From NCBI GenBank assembly GCA_964106645.2, contig OZ067044.1: a stretch of 64,000 nucleotides of DNA. One strand, written 5' to 3'. The first letter of the stretch is position 1. Each line of letters begins with the position of its first letter. The DNA is from Podarcis pityusensis (taxonomy: Eukaryota). Shown one piece after another: positions 12,833-62,730 of the stretch. Under the pieces are notes generated by a model that had not been told where the DNA came from, ran no database searches, and saw only the letters and a program-made list of their open reading frames with translations. Both the position numbers and the translations under genes were made by a program.

Positions 12833-13987
12833 GGAGCACCTACTGGCACAACATGCTGATAAGAGTTCAGAGGCTGACAGGGTAGCAACATTTCTCATGA
12901 GATGTGCACAGGTTTATGCAATTATTTAGTTGTGTGTGCATTTCACACTTCTCCTTAAGGCAGTATGTGCAAGAGTGAACACACATATGGTGCATACAGG
13001 AAACACTCTGAAGTTATTACCTTAACTATCAGTGGGCTTTGTATCAAGAACTTCATAAACAAAGTTTCTGAGGCAGAAATATAGCACTCAGCACTTAATT
13101 TGAGAGGGTTTCCTTCACAATAGCCCCCCAAAGCAAAGCCTTAAATTCTTCAGAAGGTCTAAAGGCGATGCCCATAGTACCAGCTTTTGTGCCAGACTGC
13201 CAACCTCTTTTTTATGATTAGAGGAAGAAACTGAGGCAGAAAGGGGTGGGAGTCATTATGAAGAGCTGTTGTGTGGGGACCAACTACAAGTGCTGGGCCC
13301 TTGCTCCCCACCCGCTAGAATTTCTGAATCCACAATACTTCATTTCATAGGACAGGAATGGGCAGACATCAAATTAATTTATCAGTCAGAACCAGGTGCA
13401 AAAGACATAGGGTTGTAGTCAACTCAGTCCTACCCTGAGGTAGACTCAGTGACATAAGTGAACCTAAGTTTGTCATGTCCATCAACTTCAATAGGTCTGA
13501 GCAGGACTAGCATTGAGTACCACCCATAGAATTAAACAACAGGCTTCTTCTGAGCACATTCTGAGCCAAGGAATGTGTTTTCAGTACCAGAACAGAACTG
13601 TTTCACAATCATTCACACAAAAGTTCACTCCTGGTTAGTTTTCCTCATTTCAGTAGCCTAATTTAGGTGAAAAGAAGTTTTTTGTTATTGTTAAGCTGGG
13701 AGCCAGAAACCCTTGCCATTCTGCTGAAAAGCACCCAAAGATCTATTGGTGGATCCTGACCCACCGCCTCCCCATCTCTGTCTAGGATATTGCATGTGAT
13801 ACTTCTGCAATAATTGCAACAATTTTGTTTTTTAGCCTTATATCCTATTCAATCTACAGAGACTGAGGATAGGCAAGAATGTTATATAAACAAGTTGCAA
13901 ACGATAATTGTAGTCACTGATGACAAAATCACAGAGTTTGAAATATGTTCCTAAAATCAGTATGGGCCATACAGGAAGTATATGTCT

Positions 13988-15500
13988 GAGTCCACATCCA
14001 TGGCCACCACCTTAGTGACCAGGTAGGTAGCCTGGCTCAGAGGAGCGAGGGGCCAGCTCTATCCCTATGGAACCATCAGTGGGAGGGGAGGGGTACAGGA
14101 TTTGGGGAGCATTGTCATTTTGGTCCAGGATGAAGAGAGTCACTGAGATCTTGGAGCTGAGTGGTGGGGAGCCTCCATCCTTCCATGGAACTTAATCTCT
14201 TGGAACTTTTCATAAATGAAAGAACATCAGGCATAAATAACCCCAGACAGAATTAATAGAGTTATATAGACAAATTACTGATCTCATTTTTAATAAGTTA
14301 TTCTCAGTCTGGATATGTTGTTCTTCATGGACCTCACAACCCTGCCCCAGGACTCAATAGCTGAGATCCTGGCTGGCTCTCAGAATCTTCCTCATCTCTT
14401 TGGGGGCCACAGGCTCAGAGAAGAAGGTGAACCAGGCAGGAACATAAGAGTTGCCACAGTGCCTGGATAGCTGCTGCAGAGGCTACTCATGAGAAGGAAT
14501 CAAATGGAAACAAGTCCTGACTGAGATCTTGGAAGGGGTGGATCCTCTAGCTCCTGTATAAGTTCCCAGTCTAAGTTCCTTCACTGCTGAAGCAACAGCT
14601 CCCATCTCCTCTTCAGTCTGCTTGATGCACAGAAACATCCACCACCTGGCACCAAACTGTAATGATTGCTGATTGATTTCTTCAGTTTGAAAGGGAGACT
14701 GTTAGAACTAAACACAGGATTTCTCCATGGATTCTTTAATCCTGATTTTGCATGTTTAGGAGGGCTTCTGTTGTCATCTTGAGAGAGATTTCTTTGGGGG
14801 TATTTTTTTGGCAGTACAATATGTGAGGATATGGCTAATTAAAGAGCATAGCCATACACAGGTAACAAGGATAACAAATATTGACAATCTCCATATTGAG
14901 CCTGGACTCACTGAATAATGGAGGCTTGTTTAAAGCCCAAGGCACTGTCATTGCATCAAGAAATGTGACTCAGGTATTTGAAGTACCAGACCTTTCTGAC
15001 TCTCCTCCTTAATACACTGTGAGGAGCGGATGGTGAGCAGCTTCCTCTCTGTGGTTAAGAATTCTTTCTATCACAAGTTCAACATATCTGGCACCTCCAG
15101 CTGCTATTTTCACGTCCAGGATAAAATTATTCCTTTAGCTGATTTTGAGGTTCTAGAGAGAATTGGTTTCCAAATCAGTATCTTGTGCCTTATAGATGGC
15201 AAATTGGAGTTCTCTTGCTTTATTCTCACCAACTTTTGTTTCTGGTTCTTTTGATGGGAACCTGGGCGCATTGTCATTAATACCTATCGTTTCAATTTCC
15301 ACTCCATAAATTTTCATTGACCCCTCCACATATAACCACAAAATTCATGACACACTTCTCTACATGGCCACGAATTCCTCTCCATGTATTTGGTCTGTGG
15401 TGTGTAAATGACCAACTTCAGAGTAAAATACTGAAACCTATATTGTGAAAACTATGTACACCTCTCTCTGAAAGATCTCTTATATCCAGTCTCATCTCAT
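13988..15500 (-). pseudogene. Pcdh gamma-A pseudogene: EC1-EC2 remnant (~14940-15500) and EC5-EC6 remnant (~13988-14270) with EC3-5 missing
   Basis: LDIRDLSERGV, QYFTL, GHLHTT, EKCVMNF and [23 protein letters not shown] match gene 4. 13988-14180 is nearly identical to 31375-31560 but has a 4 bp duplication (aggtaggtag). Stops and frameshifts throughout. Confidence 0.9.
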
Positions 15501-21773: not shown

Positions 21774-21951
21774 GATCCCCACAAACTGTGAGATGGGAGC
21801 ACCACTGAAATTCACACTCCCCGATTCAACCAGCTGAGAATTTCTCCATCTGTGCAACCTGATGGCCAGTAACACAAGGAGGAAGATGAGGAACAAGCAG
21901 GAGACAAAAGCCACTGCAAGGACCAGGTAGAAGGTGAGGTTAGACGGAGGA
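21774..21951 (-). pseudogene. Isolated Pcdh gamma-A TM/juxtamembrane fragment
   Basis: [59 protein letters not shown]; DNA close to 30950-31118. Confidence 0.9.
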
Positions 21952-27814: not shown

Positions 27815-28600
27815 CAGTGAAAGGCCCTTTGAGATACTAGGTGTGGATAAACTTCTGGATTATTTCCCCCCGCTTCACTCAGTTCCCTTCAGCAACAAAG
27901 TGAAGTATTGGCTCTCTTTTCCCTGCTACTCTTCTCAGTAACCTCAGTTCATGGTAGATGTGGGCAGAGATGGCAGTTAGCGGTTTGCAGACATATTCAA
28001 AGGAAGATTCCTCTTTTGCCTTCCTTGTCAATAATGGGTGTAGCTTCTTCATGCCCTAGGACTTTGACTGAGGAGGCTGCAGCTCCCAGAGGAGACCAGT
28101 GGCTCTCTCCAAGGTCTTCAGCAAAGGGGTCAGAAGACAGCAGAGGAACACAGAGGCTAGAGCTACTTTCAGTGGCTTTTTAGATAGTACTGTGAAAATT
28201 GAGATTGCATCTGGGACTGCAGTTTCGCTTACATGAAGATGATACTCATGTCCATTTTTTATTGGTAATATGGTGACATTGTTAATATATATACTTGTGT
28301 ACAGATATAACCAGTATATTTAACGTTCCCCCACCATATTACATATCTGTGTTGCACAAATAAACTGTGCCATTAATTTGAAGCAGAGAATTGAATCCTG
28401 TCATGGTAAACAGTGTGGGGTGGTTTCATGGTTTGAGAGTTTCTTTATCACCAGTAGTTGCTGATCCTTGGTGATACTTCCAAGTGAAGAGCCTTCCTCC
28501 ATTTCCTCAGGGAAAAAGTGGCGAATCTTCAAGGAGTGGTAATGACTTGCCAATGTTAACAGATAAAAGAGACAGAGTGATAAAAGAATTGTAAGTCTAA
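27815..28600 (-). pseudogene. Decayed Pcdh variable-exon 5' part (signal peptide, EC1, start of EC2)
   Basis: LTILLSLCLFYLLTLA...KIRHFFPEEMEEGSSLGSITKD, then RIQFSASN, LHVSETAVPDA, SQYFTL and YPHLVSQRAF in shifting frames, colinear with EC1-EC2. Confidence 0.7.
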
Positions 28601-29100
28601 GGTGTTAGAAGCGAGATCTTCTGATTCTGAGGTATAAATAGGACCAATGTGAGCAATTTTGTTAGCAGGTTTTATTGAAAATATGCCACCGTGGTCTTTA
28701 GGAGGTAGCTTGCTTTGGGTGGTGGGGATAGATTGAGTTGTAACTTCCTGTCAACAGCTAAAACAGTCCTGCATGGCACCCCCATGCAATTTCAGCGAAC
28801 AAAGAAACTCTCTTTGCTGCTCCTAAGACAAATCATAGAAATGCAAACGGGCCTTGTGCCATGTTCAGACATATTTAACAAAAGCCTGACATTCTTTATA
28901 AAGTTATCCAACTCCATCCAGAACTGAAAGATTTTCATTGCTCTCATAGCTTCTCTCATTCAATTGCAGAAAGTTTTTTTTTTAATCATATAAAATACAA
29001 GGATGATAAATATACAATTACATATGGCTTGAGCTAACTGGAGGCAACTAAAGGAGGACACACGTAAAAACTACCCCCCTCCCACCCTTGGGACTTTGCA

Positions 29101-37400: not shown

Positions 37401-37536
37401 TTTGCACTTTCTTACATGGGGTCTTACATTGAATTGCTGTTACCTTATTACTGATATCTACATTAGTACGGAAAACTCAAATTCACCGCACTCTTCCATT
37501 TCATTCATAATTACTAGAAGTTAAACCATAACAACA

Positions 37537-37895
37537 GGGACGCGGGTGGCGCTGTGGGTTAAACCACAGAGCCTAGGACTTGCCGATCAGAAGGTCGGTG
37601 GTTTGAATCCCCGTGACGGGGTGAGTTCCTGTTGCTCAGTCTCAGCTCCTGTCAACCTAGCAGTTTGAAAGCACGTCAAAGTGCAAATAGATAAATAGGT
37701 ACCGCTCCGGCAGGAAGGTAAACGGCGTTTCCGTGCGCTGCTCTGGTTTCGCCAGAAGTGGCTTAGTCCTGCTGGCCACATGACCCGGAAGCTGTACGCC
37801 CGGCTCCCTTGGCCAATAAAGCGAGATGAGCGCCGCAACCCCAGAGTCGGCCACGACTGGACCTAATGGTCAGGGGTCCCTTTACCTTTACCTTT
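37537..37895 (+). mobile_element. Full-length Sauria SINE
   Basis: GGGACGCGGGTGGCGCTGTGG tRNA-like head, (ACCTTT)n tail, TSD TTAAACCATAACAA (37521-37534 and 37894-37907). Confidence 0.9.
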
Positions 37896-37914
37896 AAACC
37901 ATAACAAGATCAAG

Positions 37915-38085
37915 ACTCACCTGAACATAATTTTCAGCTACAGCATTGAAAATGCCCCTGCCATTGCAACTTGAAGGCTTGCAAAAAAAAATCTCTACAT
38001 TCTGAACAGCAGGTTCTAGTAATATAATTTTATGTTTTTCTAGTTCTCTCATGTACTAAATCAGGTAGGTAAGAGGAAGACAAGC
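37915..38085 (-). pseudogene. Ghost gamma-B cytoplasmic tail with intact donor, downstream of gene 5
   Basis: LPLTYLI*YMRELEKHKIILLEPAVQNVEIFFCKPSSCNGRGIFNAVAENYVQ|GTGAGT, ungapped similarity to [37 protein letters not shown]. Confidence 0.75.
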
Positions 38086-38284
38086 TAAAAATATTAGTTT
38101 TACTCAGTGCAATTTGTCTAGGCAAAGAGGTGCCTACTTTGTTCTCTTATAATGGCAAAAGAGCCTACCTGAGCGGCGCCAGAACTGAGTGCTGGTGCAT
38201 TCTGACAGAAAGAAAGGTCTGGTTTTATTCCTACAAGGAGCAAGCCTGTGCTGCCAACATCACAGTTCCGAAAGCAAAGCTTAC

Positions 38285-40714
38285 CTGCTCACCAACCTCC
38301 TCTTTGGCATTGGCATCCCCACAGTTGCCATCCACAAGAACCACCTGAGAGCTATCATTGCACAGCAAATTTTCTGCCACCTGAATATGGGGTTTCGGGA
38401 AAGAGATCTGCTCTTTCCTCATCTCTGACGATAGGCAGAGTTGGTAGGAATAAGGTAAAGTTCCTTCTTCATAGTTTGGTGGAAATATGACCTGCGCCTT
38501 AGAAAAAGCATTAGGTTCAAAGCACTGGAATAATTTGGGATTTCCTGATTGTCGAAGTTTCATGACAATGACCAGTATTACCGTCAGGAGGAATAAAAAT
38601 GAGATCAATGCCAAAGCCAGCACCAAGTAAAACTGGAGGTCAGAATGATGCTCTGTGTCACTGGATTGCCTAGTCATTTCCGGAAGTGCCTCTTGGAAGT
38701 TCTCTGCAATCACAAGGTTGAGGACCACAGTAGCTGAGAGTGGAGCCTTCCCATTGTCCTTCACCAAGATGACCAGCTTCTGTTTCACAGCATCTTTCTC
38801 CAGAAGGGCTCGTGACGTCCTGATCTCTCCCGTGTGGGTCCCAATGGTGAAGAGGGCCGGCTCTGTGGCCTGCAGCACTTGGTAGGAGAGCCAGGCATTG
38901 TGCCCAGAGTCCGCGTCCACAGCCACCACTTTGGTCACTAGGTAGCCTGGCTCTGCCGAGTGAGGAACCATCTCAAACAAGGCAGAGCCCTCGGCGCTTG
39001 TGAAAGGATACAGAACGCGAGGGCTGTTATCGTTCTGATCCAAAATGTACACCCACACGGTGGCGTTGTTGCTGAGAGAGGGAGAGCCGCCATCTTGGGC
39101 CTTCACTTGGATCTTAAACTCCCGGAATTGCTCATAGTCAAAGGAGCGCTGTGCATAGATAGTTCCCGCCTCAGAGTTGATGGAGACGTAAGAGGAGAGA
39201 GGCAGCTCCTCCATGTTGCTGTTGAGGATGGAGTAAGTGATACGTGAGTTGCGGTCCAGATCCGGGTCCAAGGCTTTGATGGCAAAAATGGAGGCACCTG
39301 AGGGATTGTTTTCAGGAACAAAGACACTGTAGCTTGATTTTTCAAAGGCAGGTGGGTTGTCATTGATATCTGAAATCTGCAGGGAGATGGTTTTGTTGGA
39401 GGAGAGAGGAGGGCTACCTTTGTCAGTGGCCATGATTGTGATGTTGTATCCTGAGGCTTTTTCTCTGTCCAATGGACTGTCTGTGTGGATTTTGTAGTTA
39501 TTCTTAGATATTGATGCTATTTTAAATGGTACATTATTTTGTAAGTGGCAGGTAATTTTTCCGTTTTCTCCAGAATCACTATCCTTTACGTTGATGAGAG
39601 CAATTACTGTTCCAGAAACAGAGTCTTCTGGAATCGGACTGGATAAGGAGGCCAGAATGATCTCTGGTGCATTGTCATTCTCATCTATAATCTTTATATC
39701 AACATTACAGTGAGCTACTAATCCTCCTCCATCTCTTGCTTCAATGGTCATAGTGTACTTCTCTGTTTCCTCAAAGTCAAGAGCTTCCTTAATTGTAATT
39801 GTTCCACTTTGTGGATCTAGTTCAAATATTTGGTGGGCTGTTTCTGGGATGTTATTAAAAATATAACTAATATGTGCATTTAGACCTTCATCCCTATCAG
39901 AGGCTTTTACTTGGAGTATTGGGGACCCCACAGGGGAATTTTCCCTCAGGTTAACTGTATAAACTTCTTGAGTGAAGACTGGTGGGTTATCATTGGCATC
40001 TGTGATGTTAATCCATATCTGGGCAGTCCCAGTTTTTCTGGGCTCACCCCCATCCAGGGCCGTAAGGATCAACTGAAGCGAGTGCTCACTTTCCCGATCC
40101 AAAGGTTTCTGCAACACCAATTCTGCATATTTATGGCCATCTTCTCTCTGTCGAATCTCTAGAATGAAATAGTGATTTGAACTCAGCTGGTAATTTTGGA
40201 GAGAATTAATCCCAATATCAGGATCTTGAGCTTTCCCAAGAAGAAATTTGGCACCTGGCAATGTGGATTCAATTATTTGAAGCCCAATATTGCCCTTTAT
40301 GAATTGTGGGATGTTATCATTAATGTCCTGAATTGCTACACTTACATGGAAAACATTCAATGGCTTTTCAACCACAGCTTCAAAATCAATAATGCAGTGT
40401 GTGCTCTCTCTACACATCCCCTCACGATCTATCCTCTCATTCACATATAGGTTTCCATTTTCAGCATTGATAGTGAAGTATGGCTTTTTACCTTCAGAAA
40501 GGATATGCAGGTTTCTGCTCTTCAGTTCTCTGGCATTCAGTCCTAGATCCTTGGCAAGATTTCCCACCAAAGATCCCTTTGCCATCTCCTCTGGGATAGA
40601 ATAGTGAACCTCTTCCAAAACTGCTCCACAGAACAAAGATGAAAATATCAGAAGTGTTATATACCTCCCTGATGTTTGAAAGCTCTCTCCATGAAGGATT
40701 TCTCTTCTCTTCAT
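38285..40714 (-). CDS. PCDHG: Protocadherin gamma variable exon, gamma-B-like, B subfamily (gene 5)
   Basis: Full ORF; ATG 40714 (the track start at 40738 is GTG); donor CAG|GTAAGC at 38285; 810 codons. Confidence 0.95.
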
Positions 40715-43260: not shown

Positions 43261-43621
43261 CCTTGTTTGAAGCTAGAAGGAGAAGGCCAGATACTGCCAT
43301 GCCAAACAGAGGCCTAGAGATGGTGCCACCATGCCCACCCCAACTGTCCACAGAGGCAGCGTTGAGAACATGCTGCACAATTAACGCCTCCGAAAGATTA
43401 AAGTAAAAGCATCTTCTGTGGAGTTCAAAGATACACATAAAAAGGTTGCATCCACATTACACATGACCTCCTACATTAAAACAATGGGTTAAGCATTGCA
43501 TCCAGTGCTCAATTAAATACCAACAATTTGATCAGTGAAATCCAATCTGCACTGTTAAATGAAACAGGGAAACTCTAGATCCGAACCATGATGTCAAAAT
43601 ACTTTGTACAATGTTCTTCAA
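42822..43621 (+). repeat. ~800 bp non-coding duplicon, near-identical to 54017-54821
   Basis: Shared sequence from GGGTCCAAGTATTGGATC to TACTTTGTACAATGTT; twin ORF translations in the track. Confidence 0.9.
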
Positions 43622-44208: not shown

Positions 44209-44718
44209 CACAATCTAGGAGTAAGCCCTACTGAACTCAATAGCACACAACTGCCATACAGAAAGAAGTATACCTTCTCAATTATATAATAAAAACGTCG
44301 GCACATTCCACACCCACTCATAAGATTAAATAAGCAATATATATATCCATTTCACTTCATTTAATTTCATGTTCCCACTATTCAAATTCCAAAGCTTAAA
44401 TCCTAAGCACTCTTACCTGACAGAAAGTCACACTGAATTCAACAGGACTCACATCTGGGTAGATATGGTTAGGACTGAACTAGAAATCTCAAAATGCAAT
44501 GGAGAAAATAGACTATACCTGCAATAGGTAGTTTAGCCTCAGCTGTTTACTATATATAAAGAAGATGATGATTCATGAATCTAGATGGAAAATTAACTAA
44601 AGTCTGAAAAATGAAAAAGCAAGTACATATGATGTATAAAAGGTTGTATTGAAATGTCACTTAACGGTAAAGAACTACAGAGTGTACCATGCATGTAACT
44701 GCAGAGAACAAATCTTAC

Positions 44719-48253: not shown

Positions 48254-48512
48254 CGTTCTGTCCCAGCGCCTGCCAACCTAGCAGTTCGAAAGCACCCTCG
48301 GGTGCAAGTAGATAAATAGGGACTGCTTACCAGCGGGAAGGTAAACGGCGTTCTGTGTGCTGCGCTGGCTCGCCAGATGCAGCTTGTCACGCTGGCCACG
48401 TGACCCGGAAGTGTCTGCGGACAGCGCTGGCTCCCGGCCTTTAGAGTGAGATGAGCGCACAACCCTAGAGTCTGTCAAGACTGGCCCATACGGGCAGGGG
48501 TACCTTTACCTT
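48254..48512 (+). mobile_element. 5'-truncated Sauria SINE
   Basis: Homologous to the 37537 copy, ACCTTT tail, TSD TAAAATATCCCAT (48241-48253 and 48513-48525). Confidence 0.85.
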
Positions 48513-48805
48513 TAAAATATCCCATACTCCACTCCTGTAAAGCTGGTGTTCTTAACCACACACTCCACTCAACTTATACCAAATAGTTGTTCTTGCTATA
48601 GTTAACAAGTCTTGGACTACTACTCTGCTAGTATTAAACCCTTAATACAACTGAATAAAACAATCAGAATAACCGTTGATAAAGTGTATCCTGTTATTAT
48701 TTCAGCTTCCCTTATTATATCCACCTGGAACCTTTCATTTCAGGACATGCCCCACAAAAATGTTGTTTCCTAGCATTGGTTGCCTTGCACCTCCCACTTA
48801 AATTA

Positions 48806-48974: not shown

Positions 48975-49439
48975 TACTTGCTGTCCTGTAGATGTGGTTG
49001 AAATGTGGCACTGGCAGGACCAGCTCTCTCATATCGCTTCTCCCTTGTCTTTGATCTATACTAAATATTGTTAAGTATTGCATTTTTTTCCGAATAAAGA
49101 AGTTGTTCCACCCACTTGACCATCTTAGTTGTGCTTTTCTGAGCATTCTGCATTTCATACAAGTTCTTTCTACATGAATCTTCCAGAGAAGTTCAAAACA
49201 CTCCAAAAGATCTACTATGAACAAATAGGAAGCATTCATGTTTTACACATTTTTCAGTTAACTCGAATCAGAACAGGATGAATAAACTATGTGAGTGAAC
49301 AAAGTAAAACTCCACATATCTAACCTCTAGGAGGAACTAAAAAATAACTACTGTATATAACGATAGTGATATTTTAATAATCTACAGGAAGAAAATTACA
49401 AGGAGGAAGAACAGGATATAAATTCCATAATTCATGAAG

Positions 49440-49612
49440 ACTCACCTGAACGTTATTTTCAGACTTAGCATTGAATTTGCCTCTGTCATTGCAATTTGTA
49501 GACTACTTGTAAAAAAAGTTTTCTACAGTCTGAACAGCTGGTGCTAGTAATATAATTTGATTTTTTTTAGTTCTCTCATTTAGCAAATTAGGCAGTTAAG
49601 AGGAAGACAGCT
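49440..49612 (-). pseudogene. Ghost gamma-B cytoplasmic tail with intact donor, downstream of gene 7
   Basis: LPLNCLIC*MRELKK/NQIILLAPAVQTVENFFYK*STNCNDRGKFNAKSENNVQ|GTGAGT; paralogous to 37915-38085. Confidence 0.75.
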
Positions 49613-49686
49613 AAAAATACTAGTTATGCTCATACAAGGAACAAGGTTGTAATGCCAACATCACAGTTTCTGAAAGCAAAACTTAC

Positions 49687-54016: not shown

Positions 54017-55069
54017 GGGTCCAAGTATTGGATCAATATTGAAACTGGTCTTTGCTCTTCAGTGCCCTCCCCCTCAGCTCCACTGAGTGCAAATGAGGAC
54101 CTTTAGGTATCATCAGCCCTGAGCCAGTAAGTGCTACAGTCAATGAGTCATCAGTACAGATGAGTAATTGCCATCACCAGATTCCCCTAAACTAGTAAGA
54201 ATGCCATGAAGGTTGGTTTGGGTAACTCTCCTTTCAGGTCTTGGGCTGCCCACTATAGGATCCTTATGTTTTCTAACCCACATAGCATTTGCCAGTTGTG
54301 GCACATTTAAAAAGAATGGCTGGGGTCCAAATACAGCCAGTCTTTAATTATTGGCTGCCTAGCAGATGAGAAAGCTCCTGTCATTCATCCTCTCATTCGG
54401 CCAATTTAGAACAAGAACAAAATACTACCATTCAGCCCCAACTGGGAACTGATAGATCCTGCCTTGTTTGAAGCTAGAAGGAGAAGGCCAGATACTGCCA
54501 TGCCAAACAGAGGCCTAGAGATGGTGCCACCATGCCCACGCCAACTGTCCACAGAGGCAGCGTTGAGAACATGCTGCACAATTAACACCTCCGAAAGATT
54601 AAAGTAAAAGCATCTTCTGTTGAGTTCAAAGATACACATAAAAAGGTTGCATCCACATTACACATGACCTCCTACATTAAAACAATGGGTTAAGCATTGC
54701 ATCCAATGCTCAATTAAATACCAACAATTTGATCAGTGAAATTCAATCCTCACTGTTATATGAAACAGGGAAACTCTAGATCTGAACCATGATGTCAAAG
54801 TACTTTGTACAATGTTTTTCACAATTGTTCACAGAGGCAGCATTGAGAACATGCACAACAATTTATATCTCCATACGATTAAAGCAAATGCATCTTCTGT
54901 GGAGTTCAAAGATGCACAAAAAAAGGTTGCATCCACATTACAGATGAAGTCCTGTATTAAAATAATGGGTTACATGTTGCAGCCAATGTTCAATTAAATG
55001 CCAACAATTTAAGGAGAGGAACCCAATTCTTGCTATTGAATGGAACAGGGAAATTCTGTATCTGAACCA

Positions 55070-60295: not shown

Positions 60296-60470
60296 AAAGG
60301 TAAAGGACCCCCGGATAGTTAAGTTCCGTCAAAGGCGGCTATGGGGTACCGGCGCTCATCTCTCTTTCAGGCCGAGGGAGCCGGCATTTGTCCACAGACA
60401 GCTTTCCAGGTCATGTGGCCAGCATGACTAAACAGCTTTTGGCACAACGGAACACCTTGACGGAAGCTAG
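60296..60470 (-). mobile_element. Sauria SINE 3' fragment
   Basis: AAAGGTAAAGG tail and GGTCATGTGGCCAGC core on the reverse strand; absent from the paralogous site near 34970. Confidence 0.8.
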
Positions 60471-61804: not shown

Positions 61805-62521
61805 TAAAATGTGACGAAGCCACAGCAGTGTCATATACCATCAAAAGATAAACTTATACAAGTGTTTCTTAAGATTCACACTAATTGTTTGCTGCCATAT
61901 CCATTTACACTGTTTACACTGATCTGATGTCCCAGACTTCTCTGGCAATTACTTTGTTGCATTTAATTGTCAACAAGGAATTCCATAGTTTAACTATGCA
62001 TTGTATAAAGAAGTACTTCCTTTTATCTGTTCTGTATTGCCCAATGTTCAGCTTCATCCAGGCTCCAGTAATATGAGAGAGGGGGATCTATCTATTCATT
62101 TTCTCAACCTCATTCATAATTCTATACAGCTGTTTCACTTCCCTTCTTGTATTTTATCTAAACTAAGTATCCCTACAGAAGTTGTTGCACCCATGGATCA
62201 TTTGGGATGCCTTTTTCTGTGCTTGCTGTTATTTCACACAACTTCTTTTTATGAATCCTCCAGAGAAGCCCCACATAGTCCAAAATTATACTACAAATAT
62301 ATAGGAAGCATTCCATGTTTTATGCATTCTTCAGTTAAGCTGATCATAACAGGACAAATAAACTGTGCTTTGTGTGAGTGAAAAAGTACAAATCCTTATT
62401 TTTAATTGATGAGGGATGTATAAATAACTATATATTTATGGTGACATGCTAATACCCCACAGGAAGATTGAACACTCAAGCTGTATGCATGCCTACATTT
62501 CCTTTAATTTCTGAGATGAAG

Positions 62522-62665
62522 ACTCACTCTGTCATTATTGTATGCCTCAGAATTTATGCCGCGTCTACCATTGCAATTTAAAAACTACTTGTAGGAAAAG
62601 TTCTTCACAATCAGAACAACTGATGCTAATACTGTGATTTGATTTTGCTGACACCCTTATATAGT
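62522..62665 (-). pseudogene. Ghost gamma-B cytoplasmic tail with GTGAGT donor, downstream of gene 9
   Basis: QNQITVLASVVLIVKNFSYK*FLNCNGRRGINSEAYNNDR|GTGAGT; paralogous to the other two copies. Confidence 0.65.
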
Positions 62666-62730
62666 AAAACAAAAAATATATATGAGTTTTATTCCTATAA
62701 GGTAAGGCCATTTCTGAAAGCAAAACTTAC

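Follow-up and report, generated by a model that had tools for sequence, protein, structure and literature searches.

Why should three protocadherin gamma (Pcdh-gamma) variable exons each be followed, beyond their own splice donor, by a broken second cytoplasmic tail that ends in another donor, and is that spare donor kept for use or simply left over? In the accepted model (PMC7339444), a promoter is chosen first and the variable exon is then cis-spliced to the constant exons; PMC4835542 summarises the rule that the cap-proximal donor is used. The 64-kb stretch of DNA analysed here (the window) contains nine Pcdh-gamma variable exons, all on the minus strand. Genes 2, 5, 7, and 9 possess a tail of type X and genes 3, 6, and 8 a tail of type Y; the tail of gene 1 is of a further type, neither X nor Y, and gene 4 is taken by us to be gamma-A-like. 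No constant exon was seen in the window, and the relic copies compared are those of the window. Our preferred answer, at a probability of about 0.7, is that the second tail is the neutral remnant of a deleted sister exon, whose donor was inherited as an unselected leftover.

Gene 5 is a host-type X Pcdh-gamma-B variable exon coding to its true donor at 38285–40696 (minus strand; this is the translated range, and the start codon is located slightly upstream of it, by a few codons). It encodes six cadherin repeats and a Cadherin_C_2 juxtamembrane domain (Pfam), and its tail shows 94–99% identity to lacertid proteins named protocadherin gamma-B. The true donors, written with a slash at the exon–intron boundary, are CAG/GTAAGC for gene 5 (38279–38284), CAG/GTAAGT for gene 7 (49681–49686), and CAG/GTAAGT for gene 9 (62725–62730), all on the minus strand. 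Behind gene 5, a read-through stop is found 17 codons beyond the true donor (38231–38233, minus strand). In related lacertids, predicted models with the host-type ending (n = 11) fall into three sets: five are spliced from the true donor to the constant exon, five read through, and one joins other DNA. Extension to the spare donor would also give the read-through protein, so protein models cannot separate a used donor from an idle one.

The relic tail behind gene 5 comprises 53 codons with one stop (37921–38079), the copy behind gene 7 has one frameshift plus stops (49446–49612), and the copy behind gene 9 is the most diverged (62528–62665), all on the minus strand. The frame is thus broken by stops in all three copies. 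An earlier note on this DNA had claimed decayed gamma-B tails past the true donors of these three genes, and this homology is upheld and not due to chance: the gene 5 copy indeed carries a single stop in 53 codons and, in an ungapped comparison with the host tail, agrees at 12 of 37 positions, and none of 2000 shuffles reaches its score (p = 0.0005). The relics start approximately 60–200 nt after the host donor, in the variable region and on the coding strand, leaving no room for a promoter. No ectodomain match was detected between host donor and relic by tblastn with the live exons masked, Pfam gave no cadherin match on the three relic pieces (41–53 residues), and a direct protein search with the relic scored none of its 70 candidates. 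P0089, one of four representative-library matches to the relic, was rejected as an unrelated repeat protein. Judged by its sequence, the relic derives from the 3' end of a gamma-B variable exon and has since decayed.

Each copy ends at a GTGAGT, with CAG/GTGAGT and a strong U1 match behind gene 5 (37915–37920) and gene 7 (49440–49445), and AGA/GTGAGT with a decayed exon side and a weak U1 match behind gene 9 (62522–62527; all on the minus strand). The distances from the true donors (38284, 49686, and 62730) are 364, 241, and 203 nt, in line with the 200–370 nt given before. The hexamers are where they had been placed, except that 37921, 49446, and 62528 are the last exon-side bases and the first G is at 37920, 49445, and 62527. 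The junction is in phase 0, as had been stated, in the relic's own frame; it is not so from the host, where 364, 241, and 203 are not multiples of three and a stop intervenes. That stop had also been described correctly, ending 310, 184, and 167 nt ahead of the spare junctions of genes 5, 7, and 9.

Genes 1–4, 6, and 8 are without such a relic within the window. A candidate fourth relic behind gene 2, where a GTGAGT occurs at +219, was rejected: nhmmer returned nothing up to E 10, the pairwise p values were 0.16, 0.16, and 0.56, and the donor is weak (−5.7). Likewise, a GTGAGT at +266 behind gene 6 was dismissed as a weak site without relic homology. Two minor features lie near the gene 5 copy. 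The 33 C-terminal residues of model P0012 match 38033–38131 (minus strand) in a frame differing from that of the relic, probably a gene-prediction artefact. In addition, approximately 125 nt at 38102–38226 (minus strand) are found behind gene 5 only and hold a donor-like CAG/GTAGGC at +116.

What was the parent of the relic? The earlier note had described it as a ghost second cytoplasmic tail, a decayed copy of a gamma-B tail. A tail of gamma-B type it is, but a paralogue, here called W, fits it better than the host's own tail. W is a gecko protocadherin gamma-B1-like exon (P0046, XP_056718423.1; P0091; P0092), chosen as the best among the tails of 86 proteins found with the gene 5 tail. When these 86 tails were scored, P0046 came first for all three relics (67, 64, and 55, against 63, 44, and 38 for the next best), with z values of 8–12. 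In global alignments, the relics of genes 5, 7, and 9 score 56–66, 50–64, and 49–55 against the three gecko W tails and 47, 46, and 8 against the gene 5 tail. The relic measures 53 codons from LP to the donor, compared with 58 in the host tail, and its C-terminus EN..Q agrees with the W ending END/NDQ. When 13 proteins were compared with the window by tblastn, live exons masked, relic matches came from two gecko W proteins only (E 0.018–0.044); none of the nine window proteins matched a relic, and the gene 9 copy was unmatched.

In a tree of 30 tails, the relics, arranged as ((5,7),9), group with W at 93/95 (short of a star), and the host group X stands apart at 98/96. The ectodomain tree of 23 rows, which left out one anole row missing the anchor motif, places gecko W and gecko X as sisters at 99. 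In the fused gecko model P0091, W follows a Y-type exon, which counts against an X–W pair. An intact lacertid counterpart of W was not present among the five candidates of a word-limited search with the W tail, in which two further gecko proteins came up; this absence may be taken as a weak sign of loss. These W scores, together with the tail tree, the ectodomain tree, and the masked tblastn, favour what the earlier note had listed as an alternative, the remnant of a deleted neighbour exon. Descent of the relic from W rather than from the host is thus favoured by the sequence comparisons, not proven.

Alternatively, the same neutral relic could have arisen if the host exon had long ago been duplicated in tandem over its last 55 codons, together with its donor and the beginning of its intron. 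The 12 of 37 matches to the host tail are in line with such an origin, and AU tests over 58 columns do not reject relic plus X (p 0.41), nor relic plus lacertid X (0.26) or relic plus Y (0.26). Moreover, the intron start of the gene 9 relic resembles that of host X (best p 0.002 among 27 comparisons), a likeness that is not clear for the relics of genes 5 and 7 and that fits a sister paralogue, but equally a host duplicate. Nevertheless, all three copies score lower on the host tails than on the gecko W tails, the shared ending is that of W, and at the DNA level Y-type tails (z 4–5) fit the relics of genes 5 and 7 better than host tails do (z up to 2.2). We therefore consider a duplicated host tail unlikely and retain a deleted sister exon as the source.

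The occurrence of the relic behind three genes is explained by duplication. Genes 7 and 9 are homologous over 1.9 kb that include the end of the host exon, the relic, and the following intron. The relic's own downstream intron behind gene 7 (49095–49439, minus strand) is homologous to 62174–62521 and partly to the DNA past an insertion behind gene 5. This insertion (37534–37896, plus strand), which we presume to be a squamate SINE, lies roughly 20 nt downstream of the relic donor of gene 5, is flanked by the direct repeat TTAAACCATAACAA, and has related copies at 48257–48514 and 60296–60443. The gene 5 copy has the relic in common with them (82%) and, past the SINE-like insertion, a portion of the later intron as well. 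Homology of both relic and intron in genes 5, 7, and 9 points to recurrence by duplication and not by convergence; as the alignments indicate, the three copies are descendants of one relic by segmental duplication and are not independent.

Gene 2, the remaining X-type exon, belongs to another X sub-lineage in the ectodomain tree. Synonymous distances among genes 2, 5, and 7 are 0.22–0.82 in the first 400 codons and 0.08–0.22 in the remainder, a pattern of gene conversion over the 3' half, as read from the sequence. The homogenisation ends within about 50 nt of the true donor, short of the relic.

Is anything in the relic maintained? Variable columns over the last 41 codons are distributed as 19, 16, and 17 among codon positions 1, 2, and 3, without third-position bias. 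Coding constraint was considered and rejected: dN/dS values of 0.35–0.61 looked low, but other frames give values as low and neutral simulation covers them. The relic pN/pS falls within the neutral simulation (P 0.06–0.44 over nine settings), these neutrality tests resting on 120 nt and having low power. For the live tails of genes 5 and 7, dN/dS is 0.03. Identity between genes 7 and 9 is 67–77% in the relic and 74–78% in the following intron, depending on the gap setting. The relic thus appears to decay like intron DNA, and nothing in these weak tests points to constraint.

The donor itself is a separate matter. Its strength was expressed as U1 duplex energy, a proxy for splicing strength, with a U1 motif that we assumed for the scoring, and was compared with 2404 intronic GT sites. 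The relic donors of genes 5 and 7 reach −12.2 kcal/mol, among the best four of the 2404 sites, and are as strong as or stronger than their true donors (−11.0 and −12.1). The gene 9 donor has lost the match at −2/−1 and scores −6.5, a level reached by 121 of the 2404 sites, itself included. The description as a perfect spare donor therefore applies to genes 5 and 7 and not to gene 9. The hexamer GTGAGT is the same in all three copies; 3 of 178 upstream six-column windows are as conserved, and a tree-based p is 0.036. No invariant run in the alignment exceeds the one that it opens (9 nt); the next longest, of 8 nt, lies inside the relic. Positions +7 to +9 and +11/+12 past the donor are also identical in all copies. 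For the gene 5 and gene 7 donors alone, nine unchanged bases have p 0.14, and the nine-base donor site is lost in one of three copies (gene 9). The contrast drawn earlier, of a diverged relic with an unchanged hexamer, holds in so far as the hexamer is mildly unusual (p about 0.02–0.04), but the identity runs on past the donor and the exon side of gene 9 has decayed. Because identity extends beyond the donor and an invariant 8-nt run exists in the relic, a slowly evolving block explains the hexamer as well.

These data bear on the possibility that selection has kept the relic donor as a competing 5' splice site, so that the exon would be extended past the read-through stop and isoform output lowered through nonsense-mediated decay (NMD). 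Such a role would agree with the sites of genes 5 and 7 rivalling the true donors, with the hexamer being kept in all copies at p about 0.02–0.04, with the stops 167–310 nt ahead of the spare junctions, and, by analogy, with the chelicerate sDscam precedent discussed below. Against it, such strength is to be expected of any site that was once a real donor, the two strong donors alone give p 0.14, the invariance goes beyond the donor so that a slow block suffices, and the gene 9 site has dropped to −6.5. Furthermore, gene 2 has no detectable relic and gene 6 has a similarly strong site without one. We consider a selected donor improbable. The built-in dosage or off switch proposed by the earlier note is accordingly not borne out: a strong donor is present in only two of three copies, the hexamer reaches only p about 0.02–0.04, the gene 9 donor has decayed on its exon side, the identity extends beyond the donor, the relic shows no constraint, the acceptor is not shared, and gene 2 has no detectable relic.

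The donor-like site behind gene 6 is CAG/GTAAGA (−11.0), located 302 nt behind the gene (44411–44416, minus strand) and without a tail relic. The homologous place of gene 8 appears as CAG/GGAAGA, decayed.

Use of the relic as an exon would need an acceptor. The TTTTTAG that the earlier note had seen before the copies of genes 5 and 7 is present there and is missing in gene 9. Behind gene 5 it forms a weak acceptor candidate (38085–38091, minus strand) that would define a 200-nt intron and a 164-nt cassette with a stop at codon 8; behind gene 7 it ends at 49611 (minus strand) and would define a 76-nt intron and a 165-nt cassette with a stop at codon 5. Both sites have a tract of five T only, with other AGs a little upstream, and are weak as acceptors. 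In addition, a T-run followed by AG occurs exactly 57 nt before the donor in all three copies, and the phase-0 frame of 19 codons in between is open.

The last 57 nt could on this account be an in-frame cassette that lengthens the variable cytoplasmic domain by 19 residues; alternatively, the TTTTTAG piece could be a poison cassette. The T-run, AG, and open frame shared by the three copies would suit the former, and the early stops of the gene 5 and 7 TTTTTAG cassettes the latter. On the other hand, the 57-nt pieces lack third-position bias (5/4/4, 8/7/9, and 9/6/8), their pyrimidine tracts are short with other AGs nearby upstream, gene 5 offers only AAG, and no six-residue word of the 19-residue pieces is found in the 98 fetched proteins (predicted models only). 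Gene 9 has neither TTTTTAG nor a strong donor, and the gene 7 intron would be just 76 nt. A functional cassette of either kind is hence highly improbable, the 57-nt piece being an unlikely mini-exon on sequence grounds. The poison cassette suggested in the earlier note is likewise not supported: no credible 3' splice site is shared (TTTTTAG in two of three), and the relic is not more conserved than the intron around it.

U1 binding can suppress early polyadenylation, and the relic donor might act as an unspliced U1-binding decoy of this kind in a very long first intron. The part that is conserved is the intron-side hexamer, which would suit a decoy, and AATAAA or ATTAAA occurs less than 400 nt from the true donors of genes 5, 7, and 9. 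However, U1 can already bind the true donor 200–360 nt upstream, in genes 5 and 9 the closest AATAAA (at +56 and +38) sits before the relic and its donor, and genes 1–4, 6, and 8 manage without such a relic, all of which makes a decoy function a very remote prospect. Given this AATAAA, a short unspliced transcript could end upstream of the relic.

A deleted sister exon accounts for these features in the following way. An ancestral tandem pair would have consisted of a host-type exon X followed by the sister exon W. A deletion would then have taken out the promoter of W together with about 2.2 kb of its sequence, almost the whole exon. The first ~60 nt of the intron behind X would thereby have come to adjoin the final 55 codons of W, whose donor and intron would have been kept. 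The X-plus-relic unit would have been duplicated later. Transcripts from the host promoter presumably splice at the true, cap-proximal donor, and the relic would be lost as part of the intron. If some splicing leaked to the spare donor, the junction would lie 167–310 nt behind the stop, and such transcripts are predicted to be cleared by NMD as noise; their protein would be identical to the short-tailed product of the unspliced form. NMD acts on stops more than about 55 nt upstream of a junction, a distance that the measured 310, 184, and 167 nt exceed. In this respect the relic resembles NMD-coupled alternative 5' splice sites and poison exons, whose junctions fall more than 55 nt behind the stop. 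Conservation of these elements tends to exceed that of the flanking DNA, unlike that of the relic, in which, moreover, one of the three donors has decayed.

Relics of variable exons have been described in similar clusters. Each of the three human clusters has variable sequences labelled as relics or pseudogenes (PMC7766791), and the similarly built Ugt clusters also carry them (PMC2819257). For the anole cluster, PMC2764143 reports 71 genes along with 14 pseudogenes, and the gamma-b subgroup is expanded there. The present copies agree with the human and anole relics in being variable-exon fragments between live exons, on the same strand and with a broken frame, within the birth-and-death turnover of gamma-B. 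They differ in that the piece here is the extreme 3' end with its donor kept, has multiplied together with its host, and lies with its donor 203–364 nt behind a live donor, within a plausible exon-extension range. Gecko W provides the best match to all three relic tails, with similar length and ending, but W is intact and is modelled in P0046 as spliced to constant exons. The relic as such is ordinary, one more trace of exon turnover in the squamate protocadherin gamma-B array.

A downstream donor in use is known from the chelicerate sDscam genes, where downstream donors splice to the constant exon (PMC4835542). Type II sDscam shares with the present locus tandem 5' variable cassettes, a donor beyond the cap-proximal one, and retention of the DNA in between. 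There, however, a live cassette supplies the downstream donor, and RT-PCR demonstrated its use; the donor considered here is a putative one at the end of a dead fragment. By this analogy, leaky use of the two strong candidate donors of genes 5 and 7 is not far-fetched. Actual recruitment, in which these donors compete with the cap-proximal donor and lead to decay, or close the 57-nt mini-exon and so lengthen the tail, is quite unlikely; if true, it would be a post-promoter tuning of single protocadherin isoforms built from a relic. Similarly, a spare donor both used and selected would represent a splicing-level dial on a system regarded as governed by promoter choice. No report of a relic donor competing in a protocadherin cluster was found in the literature searched, where most subscription papers fell outside. 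As a leftover of a deleted exon, the relic marks a likely lost paralogue and the duplications behind genes 5, 7, and 9. Moreover, two donors of equal U1 match, 241–364 nt apart behind a 2.4-kb first exon, offer a natural test of the nearest-donor rule.

Three other exon relics were detected within the window by tblastn with live exons masked. A decayed gamma-A-like pseudogene is located between genes 2 and 1 (13987–15422, minus strand); one piece of it (14024–14182) shows 92% protein identity to gene 4, perhaps a recent conversion patch. A lone transmembrane plus juxtamembrane fragment with 78% protein identity to gene 4 lies between genes 3 and 2 (21774–21950, minus strand), and a faint signal-peptide plus first-repeat fragment between genes 4 and 3 (28455–28625, minus strand; E 0.002). 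In the lacertid model P0002, an X-type true donor is joined not to the constant exon but to DNA matching 14276–14413 and 13628–13657 (minus strand), and the window counterpart of the joined piece has a stop in that frame. Finally, a 248-nt direct repeat with 81% identity is present at 54542–55069, with a counterpart at 43341–43588.
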